64,000 nucleotides of DNA, taken from Ulvibacter litoralis. Its GTDB lineage: Bacteria; Bacteroidota; Bacteroidia; Flavobacteriales; Flavobacteriaceae. Below, in pieces: positions 3,536 to 34,609 of the stretch. A model generated the notes under the pieces. The model saw only the letters and a program-made list of their open reading frames with translations, did not search any database and had not been told where the DNA came from. Position numbers and translations under genes: made by a program. Numbering within the stretch: position 1 is the first letter of the stretch; each line of letters begins with the position of its first letter. The stretch is taken from NCBI RefSeq assembly GCF_900102055.1, contig NZ_FNBA01000001.1, positions 581,085 through 645,084 of the forward strand. Direction: 5' to 3'.

Positions 3536-3873
3536 ATACCATAGAACAAATACTACATATCGCAAAGCTAAAAAACAATTGCCCTGTATGTTATGCTACA
3601 GATGGTTTAGAGATTTCGTTTATCCAAGAAGAACACGAAAATAAATATTACAACAAAATAAAAAAGGAAGTTTCAGAAACCCTGTATTGTCATAGTTGTA
3701 AAAATATTATTTATCCTGTAAACTGGAATGAAGATATTGAACGTGTGTATCAATATCATAAAAAACAAGCAAAACCAAAAAGTGCACAAATACAATTAAA
3801 ACCTATTACGTATTCAGTCGTAATTGGCATTCTACTCGTTCTTTTTGTGGTTTTTTATGTAGCTAGCCTATAG
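3532..3873 (+). CDS. small zinc-ribbon (2x CxxC) protein with a C-terminal TM anchor, translationally coupled to the upstream HK
   Basis: 113-aa ORF whose start overlaps the HK stop (ATGA). It has CPVC and CHSC pairs and a hydrophobic C-terminus (VVIGILLVLFVVFYV). Confidence 0.45.
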   Translation: MNTIEQILHIAKLKNNCPVCYATDGLEISFIQEEHENKYYNKIKKEVSETLYCHSCKNIIYPVNWNEDIERVYQYHKKQAKPKSAQIQLKPITYSVVIGILLVLFVVFYVASL

Positions 3874-3880
3874 CGTATTT

Positions 3881-4273
3881 CTAAGCCATGTTTTTTTGAA
3901 TTGCCGTAGCCAAAGCTATAAATTCTTCTGAAGACATAGCAACTTTGTGAGAAAAAGTCATTTCTTTCATCTCATTTAACGGAATTAAATGAACGTGAAC
4001 ATGTGGCACTTCCAATCCAACAACTGCAACTCCTACTCGTTTACAAGCAACCGTTTTTTCCAAAGCGATGGCAACCTTTCTAGAAAACTTCATCAGTTTT
4101 ATATAAGTTTCTTCATCTAGGTCGAAAATTTTATCCACCTCGACTTTAGGAACACATAATGTATGTCCTTTCGCATTTGGATTGATGTCTAAAAAAGCTA
4201 TAAAATGTTCGTCCTCTGCTACTTTGTAACAAGGAATTTTACCTTCAATTATTTGTGTAAAAATAGACACCAT
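3881..4273 (-). CDS. HIT (histidine triad) family hydrolase
   Basis: 130-aa ORF with an HVHVHLIP histidine-triad motif. Confidence 0.85.
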   Translation of the reverse strand: MVSIFTQIIEGKIPCYKVAEDEHFIAFLDINPNAKGHTLCVPKVEVDKIFDLDEETYIKLMKFSRKVAIALEKTVACKRVGVAVVGLEVPHVHVHLIPLNEMKEMTFSHKVAMSSEEFIALATAIQKNMA

Positions 4274-4750
4274 TTAGTCTCTTGTAATTTCTAAAATTTC
4301 AAAATTTATAACTCCGTTTGGGATTTGTATTTCGGCTACATCCCCTACTTTCTTACCAAGCAATCCTTTTCCGATAGGTGAATCTACTGAAATTTTTCCA
4401 GTTTTTAAATCGGCTTCACTTTGCGCCACCAATTTATAATTCATTTCCATCCCGTTGGCTTGATTTTTAATCTTCACATTAGAATGCACTAAAATTTTAG
4501 AGGTATCTAAAACAGACTCATCTATTAAACGAGCATTGGCATATACTTCTTCCAATTTAGAAATGCGCATTTCTAGCATTCCTTGTGCCTCTTTTGCAGC
4601 ATCATATTCTGCATTCTCACTTAAATCTCCTTTATCACGAGCTTCCGCAATTGCTTTAGAAGCATTCGGACGCTCCACATCTTTAAGCTGATTAAGTTCT
4701 TCTCTCAACTTTTTTAAACCTTCTGCTGTATAATAAGATACTTTACTCAT
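4274..4750 (-). CDS. greA: transcription elongation factor GreA
   Basis: 158-aa ORF with an N-terminal coiled-coil (YTAEGLKKLREELNQLK) and a C-terminal FKBP-like domain, both typical of GreA. Confidence 0.9.
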   Translation of the reverse strand: MSKVSYYTAEGLKKLREELNQLKDVERPNASKAIAEARDKGDLSENAEYDAAKEAQGMLEMRISKLEEVYANARLIDESVLDTSKILVHSNVKIKNQANGMEMNYKLVAQSEADLKTGKISVDSPIGKGLLGKKVGDVAEIQIPNGVINFEILEITRD

Positions 4751-4824
4751 AGTTTATTCGTTTTTGTTGTACAATGTCCTTTAAATACCACATTTTCAAT
4801 TTAAAATGACGTCTGTCTCTATAA

Positions 4825-4866
4825 ATACAAAAAATCCCATTGCGAGACGGGATTTCTTTTACACAA
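4825..4866 (-). terminator. intrinsic-terminator-like hairpin plus T-tract in the greA 5' leader (candidate attenuator or leader sRNA)
   Basis: On the minus strand the sequence reads GAAATCCCGTCTCGCAATGGGATTTTTTGTATTT, a GC-containing stem followed by a U-run. It lies about 75 nt upstream of the greA start codon. Confidence 0.4.
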
Positions 4867-4930
4867 ATATACTAAAAAATAACTTATTACATATTTTGTA
4901 CTACTTTTGAACTTAAATTTTAGACCCCTA

Positions 4931-5365
4931 ATGAAACGTATTATATTCTCCCTGTTTTTATCCTTAACACTTTTAAGCTGTAATAAAGATGATTCTCCTA
5001 ACGACAACAATCCCTTCTTGTTAAGTCCGATTGTTAGCGTAAACTTAAACCTAAACTTACCGCAATACAATGACTTAAAATTTCCTGGAAATAGTATTGT
5101 TCTTCCCGGAGAAGGCATTCGAGGCATTGTGGTGTATTGTGTAAATTCTGAATTTTACACCGCCTTCGACCTAAGCGACCCAAATCATGTGCCTAGCTCT
5201 TGTTCGGGGATGACAATTTCTGGTATTGAAACCACGTGCCCTTGTACTTCAGATTCTAATAAATACGATATTGTTACAGGACAGCATAGATCCAATCCAG
5301 ATTTATACCCTATGCAACAATATCGCTCTATTAGAACAGGTGACAATATTCAAATCACCAATTAA
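4931..5365 (+). CDS. hypothetical lipoprotein (lipobox LLSC), Cys-rich
   Basis: The ORF runs 4907..5365. The likely start is MKRIIFSLFLSLTLLSCNKDD. The mature part carries several Cys/His residues (CVNSEF...SSCSGM...CPCTSD). Confidence 0.5.
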   Translation: MKRIIFSLFLSLTLLSCNKDDSPNDNNPFLLSPIVSVNLNLNLPQYNDLKFPGNSIVLPGEGIRGIVVYCVNSEFYTAFDLSDPNHVPSSCSGMTISGIETTCPCTSDSNKYDIVTGQHRSNPDLYPMQQYRSIRTGDNIQITN

Positions 5366-7539
5366 AATTTTACAGTAGCACCCACTAAAAAATTAATTTC
5401 AGCCTGCGGATAATAGCCTGCTCCTTCTATGGTCGTAACTTGTCCAGGAACGCTCCAGTCATCATCGTAGGTGTAGAAATATCCATTAGACACATACTTT
5501 GTGCTAAAGATGTTATTTACCAGTCCAGAGAATACTATTGATTGTACAACAGGCACATTGTCTAACGTATAGAAAATATTAAAGTCGTGGATAAAGTAAC
5601 TCTCCAATTTTGAAGCATCGCTGTCAATATTTCCCATATATTGCTCGCCTACAAACTTTGATAGTAATGAAAACTGCAACTTGTTAATAGGACTGTATTC
5701 AATTCTATTTCCAGCCACAATTCCGGGAGAGAAAGAGGTATTTGTAGTTCCTAGATTTACCAAACCACCATCTCTAGCAGTCACAAAGTCTAAATTTTTA
5801 TTCGTGCTTAAAGCAATGTTTGGAAACACACGTACTTGATTGGAAATACGCACTTCTGCATCCACTTCAAGTCCTAAACGATAACTTTTACCACTAGTAG
5901 CACGAATAGGCGCTCCTACATCATCTAGCGCTCCAGTAAGCACCAATTGATCTTTATAGTTCATATAAAAAAGGTTGGTATTTACTTTAACAGCTTCAGA
6001 AGCAGTTCGCCATCCTAATTCAAAATCGTCTAATTTTTCAGCCGTAAAAATGCCTTGTTCAAAATCGCTTTTACGAGGCTCTCTGTTTGCTTTTCCGTAG
6101 GAGAAATAAAACTGATTGGCATCGTTTAACTGAAATGAAGCCCCCGCTTTTGGGTTGAAAAAACTATACTTTTCACGAACTACTAACGGAAGTAAATCGG
6201 AGGTAATTCCGCTCGTTCTATAACTTACAAAACGTCCTTGAAGATCTCCAAATACACTCCATTGGTCATTTAAACGATAGGTCATTTTTCCGAAGACAGT
6301 GAATTCATTTTTATCTCCATTTCCACTATAATAACGGTCTCTAATCTCAGAACCTCCTGCATTTTGAGCCCAAATCACTTCTCCAAAATGATCCCCTCCG
6401 TAATAACTATAAAAAATTCCTCCCGTTACATCTACCCGAGTGTCTTTGTACGTTACGTTCGCATTGGCTGCGTAAAAGTTGTTGTTTAACCAACGACGAC
6501 GTATTAAATCTGTAGTATTTATGGTTTCACCCCCTATTTCGATTGGCTCAAACCCGTAATCTTCAAAAGATTCGTCTTCTTTATATTGCTCAAAATACCC
6601 TCTTCCGTAGGTATAATTAAGTGCTAGATTGGTGCTCCATTTATTATTGAAACGTTGATTCCAAAGCAACTGATAATGATCTTGCGAATAGTGATCTACT
6701 TCTTGGTCGTAAAACTGATCGTTGCCATCGGCATCGGTATAAGCCCCTGAAGGATTATAGGTTCTGTCGTCTCGCAACTTTGTTGAATCAATTCCATTCC
6801 ATGCTTGATACGTCTCTTCAGTTCCTCCAAAGGTGATGGCTTTAATTAAGGTGTTTTTTCCAACGTACGATCCTTGTAAGTAATACGATTTTAAATCACT
6901 TGTCGCTCTATCAATATACCCGTCTGACTGGATGGTAGACAACCGTCCCGCCAACTCGATGTGATCGCTTAACAATCCTGTGCTAAACTTTACATTGTGT
7001 TTGCGCGTGTTATACGAACCAATTGCATTTGAAATTTCGCCGTATGCCTTTTCTGAAACACCATCGGTAAGCATGTTTAAACTTGCTCCAAAAGCACCAG
7101 AACCGTTTGTTGACGTTCCAACACCACGTTGCAACTGCAAGCTTTGAACTGATGACGTAAAATCGGGTAAGTTTACAAAAAACGACCCCTGACTTTCGGC
7201 ATCGTTAAACGGAATTCCGTTTAACGTAACATTTACTCGTGAAGCATCGCTACCACGCACACGAATGTATGTATACCCTACACCAGCACCTGCATCACTC
7301 GTGGTGACAACCGATGGTAAGTACGAAAGCATATAAGGAATGTCTTGCCCTAGGTTTCGCTTCTCAAGCTCTTCTTTTTCTAAATTTGAATGGGTAATGG
7401 GCGAATCTGCATCTACCCGAACTGATTGAATTAATACTTCCTCTAGTTTTTCTACGGAAGTAGAATCTTTAACTTTTTCTTGCGAATAGCCATTTGCTAT
7501 TGCTGTTAAAACGGTAAGTGAAATGAATAATTTTTTCAT
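5362..7539 (-). CDS. TonB-dependent outer membrane receptor, likely a thiamin/TPP-regulated transporter
   Basis: The long ORF has a probable true start at MKKLFISLTVLTA (signal peptide). It contains a plug domain and a beta-barrel, and ends in the aromatic residue F. A TPP riboswitch lies immediately upstream. Confidence 0.85.
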   Translation of the reverse strand: MKKLFISLTVLTAIANGYSQEKVKDSTSVEKLEEVLIQSVRVDADSPITHSNLEKEELEKRNLGQDIPYMLSYLPSVVTTSDAGAGVGYTYIRVRGSDASRVNVTLNGIPFNDAESQGSFFVNLPDFTSSVQSLQLQRGVGTSTNGSGAFGASLNMLTDGVSEKAYGEISNAIGSYNTRKHNVKFSTGLLSDHIELAGRLSTIQSDGYIDRATSDLKSYYLQGSYVGKNTLIKAITFGGTEETYQAWNGIDSTKLRDDRTYNPSGAYTDADGNDQFYDQEVDHYSQDHYQLLWNQRFNNKWSTNLALNYTYGRGYFEQYKEDESFEDYGFEPIEIGGETINTTDLIRRRWLNNNFYAANANVTYKDTRVDVTGGIFYSYYGGDHFGEVIWAQNAGGSEIRDRYYSGNGDKNEFTVFGKMTYRLNDQWSVFGDLQGRFVSYRTSGITSDLLPLVVREKYSFFNPKAGASFQLNDANQFYFSYGKANREPRKSDFEQGIFTAEKLDDFELGWRTASEAVKVNTNLFYMNYKDQLVLTGALDDVGAPIRATSGKSYRLGLEVDAEVRISNQVRVFPNIALSTNKNLDFVTARDGGLVNLGTTNTSFSPGIVAGNRIEYSPINKLQFSLLSKFVGEQYMGNIDSDASKLESYFIHDFNIFYTLDNVPVVQSIVFSGLVNNIFSTKYVSNGYFYTYDDDWSVPGQVTTIEGAGYYPQAEINFLVGATVKF

Positions 7540-7667
7540 TCGTAAATAATAATTACGAATAAAAGGGGCGTTATTCTTTGTTAAGGTTAAATAAATTGTT
7601 TGCTTCCGCAGATACGATATCATTGGTTCGCATGGTCTAAAAAAATATCTGAAAGACATTCTCTTAG

Positions 7668-7838: not shown

Positions 7839-10289
7839 ATGCAGCAACCAAAAAACAAACTTACCCTAAAAATCATCCTTAGCTATTTGGTAATCTTAGC
7901 GTTGGCTGTATTTGTAAGTGCTTTTATTTATTCTGAATACAAGGCGTATATTCAGAATGCTTCCGAAAATTCATTGGACCAAAAGTTTATTGAAACTGGA
8001 ATGTTAATCAATTTGGTGTATGAAACGGATGGTTTTTCTCGCATTGCACTACTTACCGAAAAAGAAGAAGATTTTATAAAATACACCACGAAAGTGGATT
8101 CGCTTTACAATCAAATAGAAAACATTAAAAAACTCACCTCTAGTGCCTTTCAACTCAAACAATTGGATAGCGTAAAATCATTGTTGGAAGAAAAAACGCG
8201 AAACATAGAACAACTTCGTGTGTTAACGATTACCAGTAATAAAGATTCTTCGCTAGACGATATTCTGGATGAGATTAAAAAATTGGAAGAGACCATGGGA
8301 AAAAACTCCCTAGAAACCATGATTAAAAATCCTTCCATACTTTCTAAAAAAGAACGGAAAGTTTGGCAGTCGTATGTTGATTGGTTAAACGCAAGCACCC
8401 TCACCGACACCACAAAACTGAACACCAAAATGGTCGATTCTATGTTGGTCGCTTCGCGCTTTATTGTTTCTGAAGCTAAAAAAGAAAATTCGCGTATTCG
8501 GCAATCGTTGCAACAAAAAGAAAACGAATTGATTCGAAATGACCTTACCATTTCGGAACAATTACGTCAAATTATCGCAGCCTTAGATTTTGAAATTAGT
8601 AAAAACAACAATCTAGAGAAAGAACATCGCCTCGCCTCGATTCAACGCACTTCGTACACATTAAAGTTAGCGAGTATTGCAGCAGCGCTTATTATGCTAT
8701 TGTTTACCTACCTTATTCTCACTGACTTTTTTAAGGCTGAAAAATTTAAAACCAATCTCGCTGAAGCCAAACAATATTCTGAAGATTTATTAAAAAGCAG
8801 GGAGCAACTCATTTCTACGGTGAGTCACGATTTAAAAACGCCACTAAATACAATTTTAGGCTATACAGAGCTCATTGAAGACACGCCTCTTTCAGAAAAA
8901 CAACAACATTACAGCAGTCAAATTAGCACAAGCGCTACATTTATTTCGAAGTTGGTAAACGACTTGTTAGATTTTTCAAAACTGGAAGCTGGAAAACTCA
9001 CTATTGATGCGATTCCCTTTTCGTTGGAAAATTGCATTAACGACATTGCAAAAGCTTCAGAAGACATGTACGCTCAAAAAAATGTGTCGCTTTTGGTATC
9101 TATATCTGAAACTGTTCAGAACACATTTTACATTGGCGATCCGCTTCGCATTCAGCAAATAATACACAACCTTGTTGGAAACGCCTTTAAATTCACGGAA
9201 GAAGGCACGATTGAAATTTCAGTAACAGAGCACAAACAAACTGCTGAAACTGCCGTGCTTCAAATTAGTGTAAAAGATACGGGGATTGGTATTTCAAAAG
9301 AAAAACAACAACTTATTTTTAAAGAATTTACGCAAGCGGAAGAAGACACCGCGCCTAAATATGGTGGCTACGGATTGGGACTAGCCATTTCAAAAAAACT
9401 TAGTCAGTTACTCAACGGAAGTCTTACCGTAACCAGTAAACTAGAAGAAGGAAGTACCTTTACCTTAGAACTTCCTTTGAAAAAATCGAATCGAATCATT
9501 CCTAAAAAACAAGTTTCAAAGCAACAGGGCTTTTCAAAAATAAAAGGATTAATTCTAGACGACGATGCTACAATGCTGGAACTTCTTGGCGAAGTTTTAG
9601 CGCTACTCAATGTTGAAACGGAATTATATACCACTTTTACAGAACTTCAGAAAAGAGCGACATCCGACTTCGATTTTATACTTACCGATATTCAAATGCC
9701 CGATATGGATGGATTTACAGTCCTAAAAAAAATACAACAAGGCACCCTTTCGGCTTATTCACAACAGCCTATAATTGCTATGACAGGAAATAGGGCTATT
9801 GAAAAGAAAGTATACCTTGAAAAAGGGTTTTCAAACATGCTTCTGAAACCCTTTAGTAAAGATCAACTCGCGAAGCTATTAAGCGAGTTATTTCCCTCTA
9901 AAATTGAAATTAAAGCTGAAAATTCTGAAATACTTCAATCACCCAAACATGCAAATGAAGAATATAGTCTAGCGTTGTTATCTTCTTTTGTTGGAGACAA
10001 AGCGGCCTTAAAAGAAATTTTAAGTGAGTATTTAAATCAAACAAAAAAGAATCGGATTGAACTAGAAGAAGCTTTTCAAACAAAAGACTTTGAAACGATT
10101 AATTCAATAGCACATAAAATGCTTACAATGAAGCGTCAAATTGAAGCAAAACACATCCTACCAATCCTAGAACGACTTGAAAAAGCAACTTCAGAAACAA
10201 TTTCTGACAGTGAATTAAAAACGCTTTCAGAAACATTAAAAAAACACCTCAACAACCTTGTCACAGGACTTGAAAAGGAAATTTCTTAA
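7839..10289 (+). CDS. hybrid sensor histidine kinase / response regulator (TM - coiled coil - TM - HisKA - HATPase_c - REC - Hpt)
   Basis: 816-aa ORF. H-box SHDLKTPLNTILGYTELI. HATPase motifs DTGIGI and GYGLGL. REC domain with ILTDIQMPDMDG. The C-terminal part has an Hpt-like helix (AHKMLTMKRQIEAKH). Confidence 0.85.
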   Translation: MQQPKNKLTLKIILSYLVILALAVFVSAFIYSEYKAYIQNASENSLDQKFIETGMLINLVYETDGFSRIALLTEKEEDFIKYTTKVDSLYNQIENIKKLTSSAFQLKQLDSVKSLLEEKTRNIEQLRVLTITSNKDSSLDDILDEIKKLEETMGKNSLETMIKNPSILSKKERKVWQSYVDWLNASTLTDTTKLNTKMVDSMLVASRFIVSEAKKENSRIRQSLQQKENELIRNDLTISEQLRQIIAALDFEISKNNNLEKEHRLASIQRTSYTLKLASIAAALIMLLFTYLILTDFFKAEKFKTNLAEAKQYSEDLLKSREQLISTVSHDLKTPLNTILGYTELIEDTPLSEKQQHYSSQISTSATFISKLVNDLLDFSKLEAGKLTIDAIPFSLENCINDIAKASEDMYAQKNVSLLVSISETVQNTFYIGDPLRIQQIIHNLVGNAFKFTEEGTIEISVTEHKQTAETAVLQISVKDTGIGISKEKQQLIFKEFTQAEEDTAPKYGGYGLGLAISKKLSQLLNGSLTVTSKLEEGSTFTLELPLKKSNRIIPKKQVSKQQGFSKIKGLILDDDATMLELLGEVLALLNVETELYTTFTELQKRATSDFDFILTDIQMPDMDGFTVLKKIQQGTLSAYSQQPIIAMTGNRAIEKKVYLEKGFSNMLLKPFSKDQLAKLLSELFPSKIEIKAENSEILQSPKHANEEYSLALLSSFVGDKAALKEILSEYLNQTKKNRIELEEAFQTKDFETINSIAHKMLTMKRQIEAKHILPILERLEKATSETISDSELKTLSETLKKHLNNLVTGLEKEIS

Positions 10290-11644
10290 AGCTCGATTTG
10301 ATATTGTTCTAGTTTATTGTAAAGTGTTTTGCGGGTAATATTTAATAATTTTGCGGCGCGAGATTTGTTATTGCCGGCTTCTTTTAAAGCATTGATAATA
10401 AGTTGTTTTTCATTCGAATTTTTAGAAAAATCTTTCGGCGCTGCTTTCTTTTCAGAAGCTTCCATGACTTCTCTCGGAATCACATCCAACGGAATTAAAC
10501 TTGAGTTGGTAAGCAGTACAGACCGTTTTATTACATTTTTGAGTTCTCGCAAATTTCCAGGCCACGCGTATCTTTTAAAAGCTTCTTCCACTTGCTTTGA
10601 GAGTCCGATCACGTTTTTTCCCAACGAAGCATTGGCTTGTTCTAAAAAATAATGTGTAAACAGAAATAGATCTTCGGTACGCTCACGAAGCGAAGGAATC
10701 TGAATCGAAAATTCATTCAAACGGTGGTACAAATCTTCTCTAAAATTTCCTTCCGAAACGGCTTTCACCAAATCTTCGTTGGTCGCCGTTACAATGCGAA
10801 CATCCACTTCAATTTCTTTACTACTTCCAACCGGTTTAATTTTTCGTTCTTGAAGCGCACGTAACAATTGTATCTGGTTTTCGTACGAAAGATTTCCTAC
10901 TTCATCTAGAAAAAGAGTTCCGAGATGTGCGGCTTCAAAATGTCCTTTTTTATCGGTAATGGCTCCTGTAAAACTTCCTTTAATGTGTCCGAAAAACTCA
11001 CTTGCAGCAATCTCTTTCGGAATAGCACCGCAATCTACTGCTACAAAATTCTTGTCTTTACGATCACTAAAATTATGAATCGCATTGGCAGCAACCTCTT
11101 TTCCCGTTCCACTTTCACCTTGCAACAACACGTTCATTTGTGTAGGCCCCACCAATTTGAGATACTCATTAAACTTTTTAGAAACCCCACTATTTCCTGC
11201 TACAAAACCAGATTTTACCGTCTCTATTTCTTTCGCGGGTTGCTTTTTTTCTTCGGAAACATTTACGGGCACCTCTTTGTTTTCCGTTTCTAAAGCTTGC
11301 TCTATAATCATCACCAACTCTTCTGGGCGAAAGGGTTTTGATATATAATCTAACGCTCCTTTTTTAATAGCTTCTACGGCAGTTGAAACTTCTGCGTAGC
11401 CTGTCATTAAAATAGTTTGAGTTTTCTTGGCGTTTTTTCTTGAAAAATCTAGCAGTTCCAATCCCGAGCCATCTGGAAGTTGTAGATCGGTAATTAAAAG
11501 CTGATACTTTTGAGTTTCAATCTGAGTCTTCGCTTCTTCACTATTCGTGGCTATTTGAACCTCAAATTGACGACGCTCTAAAAAGTTAGCGATCATTTTT
11601 CCGAAGGCAATATCGTCTTCAACAATAAGAATTTTATTTTTCAT
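10286..11644 (-). CDS. sigma-54-dependent Fis-family response regulator (NtrC-like: REC - AAA+ - HTH)
   Basis: 452-aa ORF. The REC N-terminus is ILIVEDD...LLITDLQLPDGSG. Walker A is GESGTGKE. The GAFTGA-like loop is GSFTGA. The C-terminal Fis-type HTH is AAKLLNITRKTLYNKL. It is convergent with the hybrid HK and overlaps it by 4 bp. Confidence 0.9.
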   Translation of the reverse strand: MKNKILIVEDDIAFGKMIANFLERRQFEVQIATNSEEAKTQIETQKYQLLITDLQLPDGSGLELLDFSRKNAKKTQTILMTGYAEVSTAVEAIKKGALDYISKPFRPEELVMIIEQALETENKEVPVNVSEEKKQPAKEIETVKSGFVAGNSGVSKKFNEYLKLVGPTQMNVLLQGESGTGKEVAANAIHNFSDRKDKNFVAVDCGAIPKEIAASEFFGHIKGSFTGAITDKKGHFEAAHLGTLFLDEVGNLSYENQIQLLRALQERKIKPVGSSKEIEVDVRIVTATNEDLVKAVSEGNFREDLYHRLNEFSIQIPSLRERTEDLFLFTHYFLEQANASLGKNVIGLSKQVEEAFKRYAWPGNLRELKNVIKRSVLLTNSSLIPLDVIPREVMEASEKKAAPKDFSKNSNEKQLIINALKEAGNNKSRAAKLLNITRKTLYNKLEQYQIEL

Positions 11645-11704: not shown

Positions 11705-11735
11705 ATAAAAAAAGGGAGCCCTATTGGGCTCCCTA
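11705..11735 (-). terminator. rho-independent terminator downstream of the small secreted-protein gene
   Basis: GGGAGCCC-TATT-GGGCTCCC perfect stem, followed on the minus strand by TTTTTTT. Confidence 0.7.
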
Positions 11736-12325: not shown

Positions 12326-12730
12326 TTAATCGATACTTGGAGGTTTACGGTTTGCTTTTTTTAAAGCATGTCCTTTTTTAGAACGCAACCTTCTTTCAAT
12401 AGCACTTTTTGAAGGTTTTGATTTTTTACGAGGTTTGGCAACTTTTAAGGCATCCTTCAGTAAGGTAACCAATCGTTCTATCACAATAGCTTTGTTGCGA
12501 TGTTGACTTCTCGTTTCGCCACATTGCAAACTTAGGATTCCATCTTGTGAGATTCGATTGCTTAATTTCTCCTGTAACCGCTCTTTTTCCAGCTCCGTAA
12601 ATGCTTCCGAAGCAACAATAGAAAAGCTCAATTCAATTTTTGTAGCCGTTTTATTAACGTGTTGTCCTCCGGGACCACTGCTGCGCACCGCTTTAAAAGC
12701 AAGCTCTCTATAAAGCGTATCAAGTTCCAT
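12326..12730 (-). CDS. arfB: alternative ribosome-rescue factor ArfB (peptidyl-tRNA hydrolase, RF-like GGQ protein)
   Basis: 134-aa ORF with a GGQ motif (SGPGGQHVNKTATK) and a basic C-terminal tail (KPRKKSKPSK...RSKKG). Confidence 0.85.
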   Translation of the reverse strand: MELDTLYRELAFKAVRSSGPGGQHVNKTATKIELSFSIVASEAFTELEKERLQEKLSNRISQDGILSLQCGETRSQHRNKAIVIERLVTLLKDALKVAKPRKKSKPSKSAIERRLRSKKGHALKKANRKPPSID

Positions 12731-14259
12731 TAAAGGGTTGGGCTGTGTTCCTTGGTGAGTAGATCGTTTACTGTTTTAACTGGATTAAATGTTATTTGAG
12801 GTACTTCAACAAAAGCTGTATTCCAATTTGCCATTGCTCCATTCCAAAGACCTGGTAATTCCAAAGCTTTTAATGGAACACCATCTTGTGATTTGTTGGT
12901 TATAAACCCAGAAAAAGGATCTGTAAATCGTGTTAAATCGAATTTCTTGCCAGTATAATCACGAACGCCACAAACAATATCTACTGGATTAAAGTGAGTT
13001 GCTTCAGAGGCTATCGCCTTTTGATGTTCATCCTGTAAATCTATTTGTGATAGTTCCACAATTTGCAACGAAGTTTCACCATAAGCATCTTTTACCCAAA
13101 AAGGACCGCCCCCTGGAGCTCCGGTATTTTTCACCATTCCACAAATACGTATAGGCCTATTTAAAATGGTAATAATTGCTTCAGCAGTTGATGGAATGTC
13201 TTTAATATTTAATGCATTCCACAGAAATGATTTGATTTCTCTTAAAGACTCTTCTGTGTAGTCACTGTTAAGCAACATATTTAAGTATCCAAAAACCTTA
13301 TCTTGAAGCCACAAAAGCTTACCGGCTAATACTTTTTTATAGTATGCCGTTTTATCTACTAACTCTTCTGTAACAACGTTGTCTATATTTTTAATGAAAA
13401 TAATATCCCCATCAACATCATTTAAATTTTCAATTAAAGCGCCATGCCCAGAAGGTCTAAAAATTAAATTGCCGTCTCTATCACGAAGCGGTTCGTTTTT
13501 TAGATTTACTGCAATGGTGTCGGTTTCTTTTTTCTGAAAAGAATAGGAAATATGAAACTCAGTCTTTGTTTTTTTACTTACCCTTTTCTTAACACCTTCA
13601 AATTCGGCCTTAAAAAAAGGAACATGCTTTTCTGCGAAGGTAAAATGTAAAAATGCCTCATCTCCAGCGGAAGCATAGAATGCAGCTTCATACAATTGTT
13701 CTTCAAAAGCAGTCGTTGAATATTTTGTGTATTTATGAAATGGAATTAACCCTTTTGGAAGACTATTAAAATTTAGTCCTTTTCTACCCAACATCATATT
13801 CACAAAAAGATAGGCGCGCATTTCTTTGGTGCCATGTCTGTATTCTGGATAGTTTTCTCTAATTTTTTTTCGAACCGTATTTACAAAAGCAAAGTCTTTC
13901 AGGGACTTTATAAAAATTGCCATCTGTTTATTACGCTCTTTTTTTAAATAGCTATTTAGCCGGTCTGTTTCTGGATTAAAATGATCTAGAAATTCATGTA
14001 AAAAACGAAACATTCGTGTAGCAGCACCTGAGGCCGGAACAAATTTCACCAAATCTAAATCAACTTTACGTGATTCAAATAAAGCAACTAATTTTTGCTG
14101 GTCACTTTCTCCAATAACTTCAATCCCATTTCCTACAGAAGCGGCAGTAACAATAGTAGCATAAGGAATTCCGCGTTTAAACGTCTCTATTTGTCCTTCT
14201 ATTTGCTCTAAACACAGTCCATGCCTCTCAATTTGTTCTAGGTCTTTATTTGTTAACAT
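12730..14259 (-). CDS. DUF4301-family protein (uncharacterised); candidate nucleotidyltransferase-like enzyme
   Basis: 509-aa ORF. The Gly-rich motifs VPASGAATRM, FRPSGHGAL and GAPGGGPFW recall the G-x-G-T-R-(L/M) loop of sugar-nucleotide pyrophosphorylases. The ORF overlaps the upstream kinase gene by 7 bp and shares 1 bp with arfB. Confidence 0.55.
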   Translation of the reverse strand: MLTNKDLEQIERHGLCLEQIEGQIETFKRGIPYATIVTAASVGNGIEVIGESDQQKLVALFESRKVDLDLVKFVPASGAATRMFRFLHEFLDHFNPETDRLNSYLKKERNKQMAIFIKSLKDFAFVNTVRKKIRENYPEYRHGTKEMRAYLFVNMMLGRKGLNFNSLPKGLIPFHKYTKYSTTAFEEQLYEAAFYASAGDEAFLHFTFAEKHVPFFKAEFEGVKKRVSKKTKTEFHISYSFQKKETDTIAVNLKNEPLRDRDGNLIFRPSGHGALIENLNDVDGDIIFIKNIDNVVTEELVDKTAYYKKVLAGKLLWLQDKVFGYLNMLLNSDYTEESLREIKSFLWNALNIKDIPSTAEAIITILNRPIRICGMVKNTGAPGGGPFWVKDAYGETSLQIVELSQIDLQDEHQKAIASEATHFNPVDIVCGVRDYTGKKFDLTRFTDPFSGFITNKSQDGVPLKALELPGLWNGAMANWNTAFVEVPQITFNPVKTVNDLLTKEHSPTL

Positions 14260-14828
14260 CCATTTTTTTCCTTAATCAATTCTTGTATAATTTTAACTGC
14301 GGAATCAAAACGTTGACTTTTTGAACCCGTTAAAACTTCATAACGGAGGTTATAGTTGGTTAGTTGAGTTTCAAAAATACAAAACATTTTTTCTCTTTCG
14401 TCCGGTCTATCACGTAAATCATCGATTTCCCAAGGCACGTCTATGCCCGTAAGAAAATACAGACTATACTTGCTTTCATTGATGCAAGTATCAATTTCAG
14501 GCGGACAAAACCCATTGTAATAAAATTCAGAATATGTTTTGATTTCCAGCAAGTTAGTGTCCAAAAACAATACCTTGTTAGCTTTTTTTGCAGCTTCATT
14601 TTCTGCCTTCATTTGTCCTTCAGCAATGGGAATTAAGTCAATTATTTCGCATTTTTCTCCTTTTTCATCCCATTTTTTTTGCAAATACCCACGCATAAAT
14701 TCTGGAACCCATAACGTATTGAAGTAAATAGCCAACTGTTTTGCCAATGTTGTCTTCCCTGTTGACTCAGGTCCGAACAAGACTATTTTTAAACAAGTAC
14801 TGGGTTGTTGTTTAAGTGTTTCTTCCAT
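14253..14828 (-). CDS. NadR-type ribosylnicotinamide kinase domain protein (AAA/P-loop ATPase/kinase involved in NAD metabolism), stand-alone RNK domain
   Basis: 191-aa ORF with Walker A GPESTGKTT and a size and layout matching the C-terminal RNK domain of NadR. It is sandwiched between pnuC and DUF4301. Confidence 0.65.
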   Translation of the reverse strand: MEETLKQQPSTCLKIVLFGPESTGKTTLAKQLAIYFNTLWVPEFMRGYLQKKWDEKGEKCEIIDLIPIAEGQMKAENEAAKKANKVLFLDTNLLEIKTYSEFYYNGFCPPEIDTCINESKYSLYFLTGIDVPWEIDDLRDRPDEREKMFCIFETQLTNYNLRYEVLTGSKSQRFDSAVKIIQELIKEKNGC

Positions 14829-15421
14829 GCGAGGTAACCAAAAATGGCGATAAAAGTAAAAATAAAATATTGAATACTTGTAAATGTAAAGCCCTTATAA
14901 AAGTATAGCGGAGCCGAAATAATATCTCCGACAATCCAATACAACCAGTTCTCTATTTTGCGCTTTGCCATCAGCCACATTCCTACAAAAAAGATAGCCG
15001 TAGTGAAGGTATCTACATACGCAGTCCAACTATTCCATTTGTCGAAAGCGGTGTATACTAGAAACACAAAAAGTAAAGTCGCACTAAAAATAAGTACTGA
15101 ATACAAATGCTCTTTTTTAGTTGTTTTACTGATAGGCGTAACATGCGACGCATCTATCTTACGAGTCCAAATATACCAACCATATACACTCATTATAAAG
15201 TAATACCCATTAATCATCATGTCTCCTAAAAGGGTCCATTTAAATAATAAATAGACAAAAATAGCAGTGCTAATCATCCCTGTTGGAAACACCCAAATTT
15301 TGTTCTCTTTAGAAAACCAAACAGATAGAAACCCAAAAATAACAGCTACAATTTCTAAAACGATATCTAACGTCTCATATTCATTGTACTGTCCGAATAA
15401 AAAATCAAAAATGGGGCTCAT
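14789..15421 (-). CDS. pnuC: nicotinamide riboside transporter PnuC
   Basis: 210-aa polytopic membrane protein of PnuC size. The hydrophobic helices are Trp-rich (WVFPTG, YGWYIW, WLYWIVGD). It overlaps the kinase gene by 40 bp. Confidence 0.7.
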   Translation of the reverse strand: MSPIFDFLFGQYNEYETLDIVLEIVAVIFGFLSVWFSKENKIWVFPTGMISTAIFVYLLFKWTLLGDMMINGYYFIMSVYGWYIWTRKIDASHVTPISKTTKKEHLYSVLIFSATLLFVFLVYTAFDKWNSWTAYVDTFTTAIFFVGMWLMAKRKIENWLYWIVGDIISAPLYFYKGFTFTSIQYFIFTFIAIFGYLAWKKHLNNNPVLV

Positions 15422-15665
15422 AATCGCTTCTATCAGATTTTACAATTTTAATATACAGCAAGCCTCTTTCAACAGCTTCTAAGGCAGTTTTCATTTCCTT
15501 CTGAAGGATATTCATCACTGCATCATACTCGCCATACACTTGTGTACTTAACGGATTCTCAAGCACGGTTAGTCCCGAGCTTCGTAAGCTCTTTATGAAG
15601 TCAATAATCGCAGGTTCGTAATTATCCTGCAAAGGGGTTAATGTTAACTCGACTGATATATTCAT
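15405..15665 (-). CDS. MTH1187/YkoF-family (thiamine-binding, DUF77) small protein
   Basis: 86-aa ORF with the ferredoxin-like ACT-type fold signature of the YkoF/MTH1187 family (ISVELTL...YEPAIIDFIKSL...VLENPLSTQVYGEY). Confidence 0.55.
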   Translation of the reverse strand: MNISVELTLTPLQDNYEPAIIDFIKSLRSSGLTVLENPLSTQVYGEYDAVMNILQKEMKTALEAVERGLLYIKIVKSDRSDYEPHF

Positions 15666-15668
15666 TCT

Positions 15669-16367
15669 TTATTTTTTTATCTTTTCAAAAACGGTTCCCA
15701 TCACCACCAGATCCGCACCCGCAGTATACGCTTCTTGTTTTTGACGCTCCGTTCTAATTCCGCCACCAACCAACAAAGGTATGGAAATAGCTTTTTTAAC
15801 TTCGGAAATTATTCTTGGGTGTACCGGAATTGTAGCACCACTCCCCGCTTCCAAATAAATTAATTTTGCACCCATATACTCGCCAGCCAATGCTGTGTGC
15901 ACAATTGCGCCTACATCCTCTTGAGACATAGGCTCTGTATTACTTACTCGAGCTACCGCCGATTGATTCCCCCCATCGAGCAGCAAATAGCCTGTTGAAA
16001 TAATTTCTAATGCTGTTTGCTGAAGCTTGGAAATTGACTTTACTTGTTGCCCTATCAAATACTCGGCATTTCTACCTGAAAGTAACGACAAAAAGAGAAG
16101 TACGTCTGCTTCAGAAGTAACTTGTGTATAGTCGCCCGGAAATAAAAAGATAGGCAATGTACTTGCTCGCTTTAATGCGTTTACAGTAGCTTCGGTAGCA
16201 CCTTCAACAACAGTACTTCCGCCCACAAAAAGATGTGTTGTTTCCTTCGGAAGTTGTTTCAGAAATACATCTGCTTCCGCAATAAAAAACTTATCTGGAT
16301 CTATTAATATGGCTAAGAATTTTCGATTCTCAGAAATACCTTTCAGCAGTGCTTGGTAACATTCCAT
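15669..16367 (-). CDS. geranylgeranylglyceryl phosphate synthase family protein (PcrB/GGGPS-like TIM barrel)
   Basis: The ORF runs 15669..16400, with a probable start at MECYQALL. The C-terminal phosphate-binding motif is GGGIRTERQ...ADLVVMGTVFE, as in GGGPS/PcrB. Confidence 0.7.
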   Translation of the reverse strand: MECYQALLKGISENRKFLAILIDPDKFFIAEADVFLKQLPKETTHLFVGGSTVVEGATEATVNALKRASTLPIFLFPGDYTQVTSEADVLLFLSLLSGRNAEYLIGQQVKSISKLQQTALEIISTGYLLLDGGNQSAVARVSNTEPMSQEDVGAIVHTALAGEYMGAKLIYLEAGSGATIPVHPRIISEVKKAISIPLLVGGGIRTERQKQEAYTAGADLVVMGTVFEKIKK

Positions 16368-16375
16368 CCTCACCC

Positions 16376-17005
16376 TTATTGTAGCAATGCGTACGCACAA
16401 GTAAACCCTTCGAACTCCAAAAAGTGAACATCGTAATTAACAGTTACGGCTTCAAATGAAACTGTAGAGGTGGTATGCAAGTTATCGAGGCTAAAATCTT
16501 CTACATAGATATTCTGAATAAAACTCACGCCAGGATGCGCAAAACTTTTATACAACGACTCCTTAGCGCACCAAACCAAGGTTAGCTTTCGCATAATGGC
16601 ATCTTCATTAGCAAGAGTGCGATATTCCTCAATGGGCGTAAACTTATGTGCGATTCGTAAAATTTTAGAACGTTGCTTTTCAATGTCGATTCCAACCTCC
16701 AAATCACTAATCACAATAGCCGAAAAAATAAATGAATGTGTAATCGAAATATGCTTTCCATTGTGCAAATGCGGCTTTCCATTTTCATCGTAAAACAAAT
16801 CGAAATCTGTATAGCCTTCCGCAGCCAATAAATGGCGTACACTCATAAAACCACGACGATGTAGGTCGCTTTTCATCCCAAGTACGCGATTTTCACAATG
16901 TTGTGTTAGTGGTATTCCTTCCGAAAGTTCTTCAAAAGACTCTTCTATCTTCCAAATGAGGACTTTAGTGGTTGGACTAAGTGTTATAGTTTTGTAAAGA
17001 GGCAT
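16376..17005 (-). CDS. 4'-phosphopantetheinyl transferase (Sfp-type)
   Basis: 209-aa ORF with PPTase motifs GKP, FNISHS-like (ISITHSF) and WCAKESLYK. Confidence 0.75.
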   Translation of the reverse strand: MPLYKTITLSPTTKVLIWKIEESFEELSEGIPLTQHCENRVLGMKSDLHRRGFMSVRHLLAAEGYTDFDLFYDENGKPHLHNGKHISITHSFIFSAIVISDLEVGIDIEKQRSKILRIAHKFTPIEEYRTLANEDAIMRKLTLVWCAKESLYKSFAHPGVSFIQNIYVEDFSLDNLHTTSTVSFEAVTVNYDVHFLEFEGFTCAYALLQ

Positions 17006-17088
17006 AATTATATGATAGATATTATGTACTTTTGCAGTCGAAAATTAAATTTTAACATTCCCGTTACTTGGGAATAAAGATACTAAAT

Positions 17089-18405
17089 ATGTCAACGAAC
17101 ACAGTACCCTACACCGCGTTTAAAGTAAAAGATATTTCCCTAGCAGATTGGGGACGTAAAGAAATTGAGCTAGCTGAAGCAGAAATGCCCGGACTAATGT
17201 CGCTACGCGAAGAGTATAAAGACGAACAACCTCTTAAAGGAGCTCGTATTGCTGGATGTTTACACATGACCATCCAAACAGCTGTTTTAATTGAAACTTT
17301 ACAAGCTTTAGGTGCAGAAGTTACTTGGAGTTCTTGTAATATATTTTCTACACAAGATCAAGCAGCAGCAGCAATTGCAGCTACCGGAACAGCAGTTTAC
17401 GCTTGGAAAGGATTAACAGAAGAAGAATTTGAATGGTGTATTGAACAAACACTTTTCTTTGGTGAAGATCGCAAACCACTAAACATGATTTTAGATGATG
17501 GTGGTGATTTAACAAATATGGTATTGGACAAATACCCAGAATTAGCAGCAGGTATCAACGGGATTTCGGAAGAAACTACAACAGGAGTTCACCGTTTATA
17601 CGAGCGTGTAAAAAATGGAACACTTCCAATGCCAGCTATCAATATTAACGATAGTGTTACTAAATCTAAATTCGACAACAAATACGGATGTCGTGAGAGT
17701 GCTGTAGATGCGATTCGTCGTGCTACAGACATCATGCTTGCTGGAAAACGTGTAGTTGTATGTGGATATGGTGATGTTGGTAAAGGAACTGCAGCTTCTT
17801 TTAAAGGTGCTGGTTCTATTGTAACCGTTACCGAAATTGATCCAATTTGTGCGCTTCAGGCGGCTATGGACGGTTTTGAAGTAAAACGTTTGGAAACCAT
17901 TCTTCCAACTGCAGACATCGTAATTACGACTACTGGAAATAAAGACATCGTTCGTGGAGAGCATTTTGAAGCAATGAAAGACAAAACTATTGTTTGTAAC
18001 ATTGGTCACTTCGATAATGAAATTGCAGTTGCTTGGTTAAACGACAACCACGGAAGTACGAAAGTAGAAATCAAACCTCAAGTTGATAAATACACCATCG
18101 ACGGAAAAGATATTATTTTATTAGCTGAAGGTAGATTGGTAAACCTTGGTTGTGCAACAGGACACCCAAGTTTCGTAATGAGCAACTCGTTTACAAACCA
18201 AACGTTAGCACAAATTGAACTTTGGAAAAACAAAGAAGCTTATGGAAACGAAGTGTATATGTTACCAAAACACTTAGACGAAAAAGTAGCACAATTGCAC
18301 TTAGCTAAAATTGGCGTTGAGCTTACAGAGCTTACCGAAGAACAAGCAGCCTATATTGGTGTAACTGTTGAAGGACCGTTCAAACCAGAATACTACAGAT
18401 ACTAG
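17089..18405 (+). CDS. ahcY: adenosylhomocysteinase
   Basis: Highly conserved SAHH sequence: the NAD-binding [14 protein letters not shown], and the C-terminal YRY. The probable start is ATG 17089 (MSTNT); the listed ORF begins at an upstream TTG. Confidence 0.95.
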
Positions 18406-18482: not shown

Positions 18483-18570
18483 CGCGAAAAGCTACGCAGT
18501 ACCGCGCTTTACACTGTATCTTTTTCTCGTGCCTCTAAAAAGGATGCCGTTTCAATCGCTAGTGCAAACC
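18483..18570 (+). repeat. dispersed intergenic element, copy 1 of 3 (variable hairpin followed by a conserved GGATGCCGYTTC box)
   Basis: Shares AGTACCGCGCTTT, a CTRTATCTTTTT segment and AGGATGCCGTTTCAATCGCT with the copies at 28024..28108 and 41785..41872. Confidence 0.6.
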
Positions 18571-28023: not shown

Positions 28024-28108
28024 ACTTCAGTAGGTCGGGTCATCCACTATATCTTTTTTGTCCCCTTCTGCGACAAAAAAGGATGCCGCTTCTACCCCTA
28101 ATGCAAAT
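28024..28108 (+). repeat. dispersed intergenic element, copy 2 of 3
   Basis: CTATATCTTTTTTGTCCCCTTCTGCGACAAAAAAGGATGCCGCTTCTACCCC. The hairpin is TTTTTTGTC/GACAAAAAA, followed by the conserved GGATGCCGCTTC box. Confidence 0.6.
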
Positions 28109-30181: not shown

Positions 30182-31276
30182 TTATTTTGTGACTTTACGC
30201 TTCGCTTTAGCCTCTTCATTACGCTCTATAGTGTGTCCTGGACGCGTCCAACGTGGTTTTTCACCCAAGGGTTTATACTGAGAAGCTTCGGCCTCTACAG
30301 ACTCCGGCTGTGCTTTTTTAGCAAAAGGCTTCATAGGCTCTAAACCTAATAACTTAAACATTTCCATATCTTGATTTACATCAGGATTTGGCGTGGTAAG
30401 CAACTTATCGCCTGCAAAAATAGAATTCGCTCCTGCGAAGAAGCACATGGCTTGTCCTTCACGACTCATATCCGTTCTTCCTGCCGACAAACGAACTTGT
30501 GTGTTTGGCATTACAATTCTAGTCGTTGCAACCATTCGGATCATTTCCCAGATTGAAATAGGTTCAATTTCTTCCATGGGAGTTCCTTCAACAGCCACTA
30601 ACGCATTAATTGGAACTGATTCTGGTTGCGGACTTAAACTCGCAAGTGCGACTAACATTCCTGCGCGGTCTTCTACTTTCTCCCCCATTCCGATAATTCC
30701 ACCGCTACAAACAGTCACATTGGTTTTACGAACGTTGCCAATAGTATCCAATCGATCTTGATACGCTCTAGTAGAAATCACATCTTTGTAATAATCTTCT
30801 GAAGTATCTAAATTATGATTGTACGCGTACAAACCAGCTTCTGCTAAGCGTTTTGCCTGATTCTCTGTAATCATCCCCAGTGTACAACACACTTCCATAT
30901 CTAGTTTGTTAATGGTACGCACCATTTCCAATACTTGATCAAATTCTTCACCATCTTTCACATTTCGCCAAGCAGCTCCCATACACACTCTAGAACTTCC
31001 AGAGGCTTTAGCACGTAACGCTTGCGCTTTTACTTGTTGCACTCCCATAAGATCGTTTCCTTCCACATTGGTGTGGTAACGTGCTGCTTGCGGACAATAC
31101 CCACAATCTTCTGGGCAGCCTCCTGTTTTTATAGATAGCAAGGTGGAAACTTGCACCTGATTTGGGTTGTGATTTTTACGATGTACTGTAGCTGCTTCGT
31201 ACAGCAACTCCATCATTGGTTTATTATAAAGATTTAGGATTTCTTCTTTGCTCCAGTTATTTTTAATCTCGCTCAT
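30182..31276 (-). CDS. bioB: biotin synthase BioB (radical SAM) with a roughly 45-aa Lys-rich C-terminal extension
   Basis: CPEDCGYCPQ radical-SAM cluster motif, a YNHNLDTS region and extra C-terminal residues (...EEAKAKRKVTK). Confidence 0.95.
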   Translation of the reverse strand: MSEIKNNWSKEEILNLYNKPMMELLYEAATVHRKNHNPNQVQVSTLLSIKTGGCPEDCGYCPQAARYHTNVEGNDLMGVQQVKAQALRAKASGSSRVCMGAAWRNVKDGEEFDQVLEMVRTINKLDMEVCCTLGMITENQAKRLAEAGLYAYNHNLDTSEDYYKDVISTRAYQDRLDTIGNVRKTNVTVCSGGIIGMGEKVEDRAGMLVALASLSPQPESVPINALVAVEGTPMEEIEPISIWEMIRMVATTRIVMPNTQVRLSAGRTDMSREGQAMCFFAGANSIFAGDKLLTTPNPDVNQDMEMFKLLGLEPMKPFAKKAQPESVEAEASQYKPLGEKPRWTRPGHTIERNEEAKAKRKVTK

Positions 31277-31291
31277 AAAGTTTTACTCCAA

Positions 31292-32710: not shown

Positions 32711-32711
32711 A

Positions 32712-33293: not shown

Positions 33294-33358
33294 TTACTTT
33301 TTATAAAACAATGAGGTAATATAGGTACTTTTTATATGTATCACAATAAAAGGTTTTG

Positions 33359-34543: not shown

Positions 34544-34609
34544 TTTTTTTATTAATTTAATGCAAAAATAGTGGTTCTACCGTTTTAAAGTGTCCTTAAT
34601 AGAAATAAT

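Follow-up and report, generated by a model that had tools for sequence, protein, structure and literature searches.

A 64,000-nucleotide stretch of the Ulvibacter litoralis genome (contig NZ_FNBA01000001.1, forward-strand positions 581,085 to 645,084; referred to here as the window) carries a cassette in which genes for a PnuC-family facilitator, a kinase of the type found in the C-terminal ribosylnicotinamide kinase (RNK) half of NadR, and a DUF4301 protein overlap one another on the minus strand. By its motifs and predicted structure, DUF4301 appears to belong to the UDPGP superfamily as a catalytically intact but highly divergent enzyme, and throughout the genus Flavobacterium it is recurrently fused to the kinase. 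We tentatively read the cassette as a NadR-like salvage line of import, phosphorylation and nucleotidylation, in which DUF4301 would catalyse the nucleotidyl-transfer step, most likely on the way from nicotinamide riboside (NR) through nicotinamide mononucleotide (NMN) to nicotinamide adenine dinucleotide (NAD). Our confidence in this reading is somewhat less than even.

DUF4301 is predicted to have a UDPGP-type catalytic domain

An earlier note on this DNA had remarked on Gly-rich loops in DUF4301 (VPASGAATRM, residues 74-83; FRPSGHGAL, 267-275; GAPGGGPFW, 380-388) and on their resemblance to UDPGP-type enzymes, and structure prediction bore this out. An AlphaFold2 model, made with 33 homologs in the alignment (pLDDT 84.8, pTM 0.86), contained a central Rossmann-like/GT-A catalytic domain superposable on those of UDP-glucose pyrophosphorylase (UGPase), UAP and USP. 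A Foldseek search of the PDB with this model returned 26 matches with E<1e-3, all of them UDP-glucose or UDP-GlcNAc pyrophosphorylases, followed by a next match at E=0.06.

The single DUF4301 sequence gave nothing meaningful against the PDB; family profiles found UGPases alone, with co-linear motifs and weak scores (E 0.18-1.6) that are not significant on their own. Against the Pfam UDPGP model (PF01704, gathering threshold 22 bits), the window protein scored 13.4 bits (E=0.031), under the threshold, and the homologs P0060 (32.5 bits, E=5e-8), P0094 (26.8) and P0079 (25.9) scored over it; the distant members P0224, P0283, P0303 and P0343 gave no match to this model. No match to PF01467 or any other NMN adenylyltransferase (NMNAT) family was obtained for DUF4301, even at E<=10, and no NMNAT was present among the fold matches. 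With the HIGH-type motif and the cytidylyltransferase-like fold both absent, DUF4301 is not an NMNAT family member.

The motifs of the protein comprise 73-FVPASGAATRM-83 (the nucleotide-binding loop), K169 (within PKG), Q242, 268-RPSGHG-273, 291-NIDN-294, E402, N424 and 491-FNPVK-495. In an alignment of 79 homologs, reaching down to 39% identity, residues A76, S77, G78, R82, M83, K169, Q242, G271, H272, G273, N291, D293, N294, E402 and K495 show no variation, and N424 is >=90% conserved. DUF4301 differs from UGPases in having a helical insertion of ~80 residues (84-165) between the nucleotide-binding loop and the PK lysine, and a Trp-rich ELPGLWNGAMxxW motif. It also ends without the C-terminal beta-helix domain, which in Trypanosoma brucei UGP (TbUGP) spans residues 408-485 (PMC3270307): the chain stops at 509, 8 residues past ...VNDLL, and the last elements of the model are a strand (480-486) and a short helix (497-500). 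Gln242 was considered as a discriminator of UTP from ATP and was rejected as not decisive. A Gln at the equivalent position occurs in ADP-glucose pyrophosphorylases too.

The family comprises ~3,360 clusters at 50% identity. In the literature searched, DUF4301 was named only in a metaproteome table, recording detection of a Prevotella ruminicola protein in the rumen, and PF14134 was not found; a literature search on UDP-glucose synthesis and GalU presence in Bacteroidota returned nothing usable. The phage collection contained three DUF4301 matches, on short unannotated fecal contigs that are probably bacterial, and neither a PHROG family for DUF4301 nor a phage NAD cassette containing it was found there.

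DUF4301 is linked and fused to the kinase in Flavobacteriales

A scan for DUF4301 loci with one genome per species yielded at least 597 loci. Neighbours were counted in the best 80, all flavobacterial; these counts are not independent, the whole block being syntenic within one family. The kinase gene lies by DUF4301 in 71 of the 80 loci, and pnuC adjoins DUF4301 or the kinase in 74. A phosphopantetheinyl transferase gene is present in 73, arfB in 49 and the gene for a PcrB-family prenyltransferase in 44.

Of the 71 loci with both genes, 13 have kinase and DUF4301 in a single open reading frame (ORF). Isolate genomes bearing the fusion include those of Flavobacterium araucananum, F. orientale, F. 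xinjiangense, F. pectinovorum, Flavobacterium sp. AED, Croceivirga radicis and Flagellimonas spongiicola. Where the two genes are separate, stop and start codons mostly overlap, by 1-11 nt. The best 120 database matches of one fusion (P0188) were all fusions of 681-710 aa, drawn from dozens of named species of Flavobacterium and from another group that is more divergent. Six fusion clusters were distinguished, with kinase identities of 35-53% and differences of up to 60% between clusters. Fusions are found throughout the genus Flavobacterium, and the lineages that carry them number at least four.

Two fusions of the more divergent group, L093 and L094, lie in unrelated surroundings: S-adenosylhomocysteinase (AhcY), phosphopantetheinyl transferase, PcrB and arfB are all absent, and pnuC stands directly upstream, overlapping the fusion. 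In L093, a Thiamine_BP homolog (5111-5353, 43% identity) precedes pnuC, and NadB-NadA lies 3.7 kb from the cassette. The fusions, together with the retention of pnuC in these two contexts, identify (Thiamine_BP)-PnuC-kinase-DUF4301 as the conserved unit. The genes for ArfB, PcrB and phosphopantetheinyl transferase are passengers, arfB being probably co-transcribed; arfB was rejected as a pathway member on its distribution, which covers 49 loci and excludes the divergent fusions.

Many fusion proteins are catalogued after their kinase half (P0426, P0461, P0482 and many JGI entries), under the names 'nicotinamide riboside kinase', 'NAD metabolism ATPase/kinase' and 'Nicotinamide-nucleotide adenylyltransferase'. 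This annotation has drifted at least once, a kinase-type name being attached to an unfused DUF4301 of 518 aa (P0350).

The kinase resembles the RNK half of NadR

The kinase gave partial matches to NadR models (TIGR01526, NF005988), in their C-terminal kinase half alone (positions 164-320 of 325 in TIGR01526; residues 232-409 of 411 in the NadR model). This agrees with the description in the earlier note of an RNK half from which the NMNAT domain is absent. The PDB relatives were RNK halves of NadR proteins only (9x6f, E=3.6e-15; 8x7f; 1lw7; E values to 9e-12), and the conserved motifs GPESTGKT and LDTN correspond to Walker A and B. Matches of the cassette proteins to PHROG families were to phage NadR and PnuC.

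In the phage NadR Bas30_86, the RNK pocket contains E230 and D275, and mutants impair NAD regeneration, according to an AF3 model and mutagenesis (PMC13464706). The position of E230 is occupied by E in the window protein and in 70/70 relatives; the position of D275 is D in 54 of 69 relatives and in the NadR proteins of E. coli and H. influenzae. By sequence, the kinase appears RNK-like in detail, with the pocket residues largely kept, S122 of the window protein at the D275 position being an exception.

Gene layout of the cassette in the window

The genes around the cassette, given in ascending coordinates, are as follows.

11713-11734, minus strand: terminator-like hairpin with a 9 bp stem, 7 G-C pairs and a T-run.
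12326-12730, minus strand: arfB, encoding the alternative ribosome-rescue peptidyl-tRNA hydrolase, 134 aa, from the ORF list and family scan.
12730-14259, minus strand: DUF4301, 509 aa (PF14134, E=2e-201), 100% identical to the NCBI entry from Ulvibacter litoralis.
14253-14828, minus strand: P-loop kinase of the NadR C-terminal (ribosylnicotinamide kinase) type, 191 aa (AAA_28, E=2e-38).
14789-15421, minus strand: pnuC, encoding a PnuC-family facilitator, 210 aa (PF04973, E=8e-55).
15405-15665, minus strand: Thiamine_BP (MTH1187/YkoF-family) gene, 86 aa (PF01910, E=5.5e-8).
15669-16400, minus strand: PcrB/GGGPS-family prenyltransferase gene (PF01884, E=9e-33; NF003198, 254 bits against a cut-off of 247).
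16376-17005, minus strand: 4'-phosphopantetheinyl transferase gene, the first of the string (PF01648, E=2e-12).
17068-18405, plus strand: AhcY gene, divergent from the phosphopantetheinyl transferase gene.

The junctions were read in the sequence. The pnuC and kinase genes overlap by 40 nt, kinase and DUF4301 by 7 nt (ATGTTAA), and DUF4301 and arfB by 1 nt (TAATG). The kinase gene ends in ...AAT GGA TGT TAA, within which the ATG of DUF4301 is embedded, and the kinase start codon is taken to be real because the N-terminus MEE.L.Q is conserved among relatives. The Thiamine_BP gene overlaps pnuC by 17 nt. The ORF list, junction sequence and family scans thereby confirmed the four ORFs, the 40/7/1 overlaps and the family labels assigned in the earlier note. 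Its proposal of a four-gene operon was right as to the overlaps and wrong as to extent and membership: the gap-free minus-strand string has seven genes, from phosphopantetheinyl transferase through arfB, perhaps eight, of mixed functions; the Thiamine_BP gene had been missed; and arfB does not belong to the conserved unit.

The sole strong terminator-like site downstream of the string is the hairpin at 11734-11713, past a small gene that follows arfB, and no site of similar strength was found within 17005-12326. A scan for sigma-70 promoters showed no enrichment over shuffled sequences, the sigma-70 model being the wrong one for Bacteroidota promoters. The identity of arfB follows from its RF-1 domain, a score of 128.6 bits with the ArfB equivalog model NF006718 (cut-off 100) and the GGQ motif within SGPGGQHVNK. 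With the TTG given as its start in the ORF list, the PcrB/GGGPS-family gene overlaps the one before it, and an ATG 11 codons downstream would give a short gap; the product is a homolog of archaeal-type ether-lipid enzymes, NF003198 being the model for geranylgeranylglyceryl/heptaprenylglyceryl phosphate synthase. The 86-aa Thiamine_BP protein, of a thiamine/hydroxymethylpyrimidine-binding family, gave a weak PDB match to 2ibo.

Proposed pathway

In the pathway that we propose, the PnuC-type facilitator would let a small compound of riboside or vitamin type, probably a cation, diffuse into the cell, and the NadR-RNK-type P-loop kinase would trap it there as a phosphate ester. DUF4301 would then move a nucleotidyl group from a nucleoside triphosphate onto this phosphate, with release of pyrophosphate. 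Metabolic trapping by PnuC paired with a kinase is how Pnu systems are established to work (PMC5749112); that the steps run in this order, and that DUF4301 uses the kinase product, we infer. The likeliest substrate line would be from NR to NMN to NAD or a related dinucleotide, and the kinase together with DUF4301 would then form a functional analogue of bifunctional NadR with a different nucleotidyltransferase fold. Where DUF4301 stands alone in other Bacteroidota, it may act on the same phospho-intermediate, made endogenously.

We lean towards NR because the kinase matches RNK domains only, its pocket residues are largely kept, the PHROG matches are to NadR and PnuC, NadB-NadA lies near the divergent L093 fusion, and the standalone DUF4301 of L087 has an NAD kinase gene three genes away. 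A line from NR to NMN would need a change of substrate class in one component alone, DUF4301, and would account for both the fusion and the PnuC/NadR logic; taken whole, it remains a tentative proposal to which we give rather less than an even chance. The narrower claim that pyridine-mononucleotide nucleotidyltransferases include DUF4301 as a third class, structurally unrelated to the others and of UDPGP/GT-A fold, converting NMN to NAD or to a non-canonical dinucleotide such as uridylylated NMN, is more doubtful still. That DUF4301 may act on NMN-type nucleotides, as the earlier note had suggested, is plausible, and some of the evidence points elsewhere.

Evidence against a nicotinamide riboside line

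A number of observations on the transporter, the enzymes and the distribution of the genes weigh against this proposal. The window PnuC scored 100 bits with TIGR01528 (cut-off 42) and matched PDB entry 4QTN (E=4.5e-8). In NmPnuC, NR is coordinated by Q124, Q196, N214 and Y242, and in the phage transporter Bas30_87 each single alanine mutant of N45, Q94 and N180 abolishes NR binding (PMC13464706). These positions were compared in a MAFFT alignment of 72 DUF4301-linked PnuCs anchored on 4QTN and E. coli PnuC, with the phage residues assigned to columns, by inference, from helix position. The Asn of the ISNY motif, present in proven NR transporters, is V in 72/72 linked proteins. The position of Q124, which is Q in NmPnuC and N in E. 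coli, is S in 72/72, and that of N214, which is N in NR transporters, is D in 68/72; the position of Y242 is F or L. The last of the Asn changes is seen in the window protein as ENWLYWIVGD, where the WxxW(x)3D/N motif ends in D and NR transporters have N. Asp here is the state of the thiamine transporter PnuT, in which D166A abolishes binding (PMC5749112). The same V/S/D substitutions occur in the PnuCs of L093 and L094. The statement of the earlier note that PnuC imports NR is therefore not secure, and on these residues the PnuCs attached to DUF4301 are probably mis-annotated as NR transporters, whether DUF4301 acts on NMN or on UDP-sugars.

For DUF4301, the contacts known from TbUGP are Gly85/86, Gly191 and Gln163 to uridine, Lys377 and His192 to the phosphates, and Glu281 and Asn303 to the glucose hydroxyls (PMC3270307). 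By motif correspondence, as distinct from coordinate superposition, DUF4301 keeps counterparts of Gln163, His192, Lys377, Glu281 and Asn303, and such a set would fit UTP and hexose-1-phosphate better than ATP and NMN; judged by its sequence, the protein offers nothing in favour of ATP or NMN. We know of no GT-A/UDPGP-fold enzyme that uses NMN. NMN can also reach NAD through NMN deamidase, NadD and NadE, so that the 'missing' NMN adenylyltransferase is not strictly needed. The window kinase has S122 at the position of D275, a minority variant. An Rfam scan found no NAD+, thiamine pyrophosphate (TPP) or other riboswitch near the cassette, and a thiamine-family gene, Thiamine_BP, stands ahead of pnuC in 56 of the 80 loci. 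No NAD or thiamine genes were found elsewhere in the window.

The distribution of DUF4301 points the same way. Three Flavobacterium loci (L055, L071, L072) lack a kinase gene between pnuC and DUF4301, which directly adjoin or overlap there. Outside the Flavobacteriales, DUF4301 had neither a pnuC nor an AAA_28 kinase neighbour in 11/11 sampled Bacteroidota contexts, which comprised two lineages of Saprospiraceae, Marinifilum, a 'Chlorobi' metagenome-assembled genome (MAG), two organisms whose contigs are of chromosome size (6.8 and 7.9 Mb), a 1,545-member metagenome cluster, two further metagenomic lineages, Bacteroides finegoldii and Parabacteroides distasonis. The association of DUF4301 with pnuC and RNK genes thus held in the Flavobacteriales, including the fusions and L093/L094, and failed in these 11 contexts. 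Within the Flavobacteriaceae, Aquimarina and Capnocytophaga keep DUF4301 and have lost pnuC and the kinase. DUF4301 is independent of the front end, and its substrate must therefore arise inside the cell too.

Surroundings of pnuC and of standalone DUF4301

The transporters at the 72 loci (within L001-L080, pnuC at about 4800-5480 of each locus) fall into two subtypes, ENW[IV][YF]WI.., with 60-83% identity to the window protein, and ENWTLWI.., with 42-53%. Among related genera now one subtype and now the other is found between unchanged flanking genes, which suggests paralog replacement or rapid divergence. A TonB-dependent receptor gene lies on the same strand 3' of arfB in several flavobacterial loci (window 5362-7659, minus strand; L055 8202-10340; L071 8168-10327; L090 8067-10244) and could encode an outer-membrane partner of the PnuC facilitator, as at Bacteroides thiamine loci. 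Between arfB and the receptor gene lie, in L090, an 82-aa gene and, in Ulvibacter, a hybrid sensor kinase gene (7839-10289) and a 452-aa response-regulator/ATPase gene (10286-11644). In L055, L071 and L072, DUF4301 has a short unrelated N-terminal extension; the kinase may be encoded elsewhere, or the cassette may work without one.

Recurrent neighbours in the 11 contexts outside the Flavobacteriales were a VCA0040-like/DUF368 membrane protein (four contexts), a class A penicillin-binding protein with Nramp (two), Peptidase_S66 (two) and a divergent RelA/SpoT (two). In four Bacteroidales-like loci (L082 5001-9855, L085 3577-10012, L087 5001-8327, L095 5001-9037), DUF4301 is followed by a tetratricopeptide repeat (TPR) protein gene, not present in all, and then by the VCA0040-like/DUF368 gene, with a shikimate-dehydrogenase-N gene next in three of the four. 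Proteins of the DUF368 family transport polyprenyl phosphates, a hint of cell-envelope metabolism near standalone DUF4301. A 417-472-aa gene 3' of standalone DUF4301 was considered as an enzymatic partner and rejected: it encodes a TPR-repeat protein and is confined to Marinifilum-like lineages. In a Capnocytophaga leadbetteri MAG (L077), a 715-aa ORF (3726-5873) lies directly upstream of standalone DUF4301 (6001-7533) on the same strand, and its N-terminus, judged by eye, is like GH65 phosphorylases of the maltose/kojibiose type.

Alternative explanations

The strongest rival is that DUF4301 is a housekeeping UDP-sugar pyrophosphorylase of Bacteroidota, of the UDP-glucose type, supplying envelope or glycogen precursors, to which a sugar-salvage front end was joined in the Flavobacteriales; the SWEET-fold facilitator of the PnuC family and the P-loop kinase would then have come to handle something sugar-like, after the manner of known salvage pairs of kinase and pyrophosphorylase. 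UGPases are its nearest structural matches and make up every PDB match obtained by sequence, and the counterparts of their uridine, phosphate and glucose contacts are all invariant or nearly so. The loss of the NR-contact residues from the transporter speaks for this rival, as does the wider pattern of a large family whose genes stand by themselves in Bacteroidia, Saprospiria and other groups, often by envelope genes, with a GH65-like phosphorylase (by eye) just upstream in Capnocytophaga and a Prevotella ruminicola protein abundant enough for detection in the rumen metaproteome; Prevotella makes glycogen from UDP-glucose. Against this stand the fused partner, a NadR-RNK-type kinase with RNK pocket residues largely kept, and the joining of a UGPase to a riboside kinase throughout a genus, which would stay unexplained. 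We know of no NadR-type P-loop kinase that makes a sugar-1-phosphate. A tblastn search with E. coli GalU of a plasmid collection that includes mislabelled Bacteroidales genome pieces showed no Bacteroidales match among those listed for all taxa together. The missing beta-helix, the ~80-residue insertion and the ELPGLWNGAMxxW motif also set DUF4301 apart from UGPases, and we regard this explanation as unlikely, if still a serious one.

A thiamine route, in which a PnuT-like facilitator and Thiamine_BP would serve import, the kinase would phosphorylate the hydroxyethyl group and DUF4301 would nucleotidylate, for instance adenylate, the thiamine derivative, would explain why the PF01910 gene overlaps pnuC in the 56 loci and reappears in the unrelated L093, and why the transporter has the PnuT-like D at WxxW(x)3D/N in place of NR-specific contacts. 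It is nevertheless improbable. The region lacks a TPP riboswitch, the kinase largely keeps the riboside-contacting residues of NadR, and the UGPase hydroxyl-binding Glu and Asn kept in DUF4301 would have no obvious role with thiamine phosphate. To our knowledge, a physiological need for nucleotidylated thiamine has not been established. The usual partner of PnuT is moreover thiamine pyrophosphokinase, not an RNK-type kinase (PMC5749112). Least probable of all, in our judgement, is inherited synteny, a gene order without functional meaning that would leave DUF4301 as unconnected with PnuC and the kinase as ArfB, PcrB and the phosphopantetheinyl transferase seem to be. The block from AhcY and phosphopantetheinyl transferase through PcrB, Thiamine_BP, pnuC, kinase and DUF4301 to arfB is indeed syntenic within one family and mixed in function, DUF4301 stands alone in the 11 other contexts, and it persists in Aquimarina and Capnocytophaga after loss of its neighbours. 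Such a history is hard to square with recurrent, stable in-frame fusions in at least four lineages and a whole genus, with pnuC-[kinase-DUF4301] kept where all other neighbours differ, and with the conservation of overlapping stop/start codons.

Other features of the window

The region 41931-47168 contains, opposite panC, glmS (41931-43778), a DUF4270 gene (43789-45393) and the gene for a short, 269-aa protein that has the starch-synthase catalytic domain only (Glyco_transf_5; 45408-46217). This protein is a potential consumer of nucleotide-glucose and as such bears on the UDP-glucose explanation. Two Flavo-1 RNA motifs (RF01705) are located on the minus strand at 18496-18567 and 28029-28106, with 44 and 42.7 bits, just over the gathering score of 42, and are in keeping with a flavobacterial origin. 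A biotin-synthesis cluster (30182-38622) comprises genes for a BioB-like radical SAM/BATS protein (30182-31276), a ketoacyl synthase (33359-34543), a class-III aminotransferase (35036-36301), a dethiobiotin-synthetase-like AAA_26 protein (36803-37450) and a class-I/II aminotransferase (37456-38622).

Significance

The DUF4301 family, previously without assigned function, spans the Bacteroidota, including gut Bacteroides, Parabacteroides and Prevotella. The present analysis assigns it to the UDPGP superfamily and documents fusions, recurrent and spread over a whole genus, to a nicotinamide-riboside-type kinase encoded downstream of pnuC. If DUF4301 does act on NMN, it would be a new enzyme class in the NAD salvage of a dominant marine and gut phylum: flavobacteria would carry a 'NadR built from different parts', Bacteroidota would possess an unrecognised NMN-recycling or dinucleotide-forming enzyme, and the database names now spreading from the kinase half of the fusions would be corrected. 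If it makes UDP-sugars, it would represent a eukaryote-type UGPase lineage in bacteria.

Comparison with known systems

Compared with UDPGP enzymes (PF01704; T. brucei UGP, 3GUE; human UGP2, 3R2W; AGX1/UAP1; L. major USP), DUF4301 is ~13-17% identical and has the loop A-S-G-A-A-T-R-M in place of G-G-x-G-T-x-M. It is further distinguished by ELPGLWNGAMxxW, by the helical insertion of ~80 residues that splits the loop from the PK lysine, by its restriction to Bacteroidota-like bacteria and by its frequent fusion to a riboside-type kinase. Pairs or fusions of a kinase with a pyrophosphorylase are also known from sugar salvage, namely the Bacteroides fucokinase/GDP-fucose pyrophosphorylase FKP, AmgK-MurU and NahK-GlmU. 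These use anomeric kinases of the GHMP or APH type and non-Pnu transporters, whereas the cassette has a P-loop NadR-type kinase and a Pnu-family protein.

The loci of Bacteroidetes and Shewanella that combine PnuT with thiamine pyrophosphokinase share with the cassette a Pnu facilitator with Asp at WxxW(x)3D and the trapping of cargo by phosphorylation (PMC5749112), and the PF01910 gene suggests a thiamine association of the cassette as well. The cassette differs in having an RNK-type kinase and an added nucleotidyltransferase, and in lacking a TPP riboswitch and thiamine pyrophosphokinase. PnuC/NadR systems (Enterobacteria, Pasteurellaceae, Lactococcus; phage NARP3 Bas30_86/87) have the logic proposed for the cassette, with a Pnu facilitator followed by a NadR-type RNK kinase and then a nucleotidyltransferase. 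The kinase and PnuC are homologous in the two, and in both the kinase and the transferase are often one polypeptide. The cassette has an extra Thiamine_BP gene and a transporter without the NR-coordinating N, Q/N and N. The transferase is a HIGH-motif NMNAT domain in NadR and a UDPGP-fold enzyme in the cassette, and the domain order is reversed in the fusions, with the kinase N-terminal and the transferase C-terminal.

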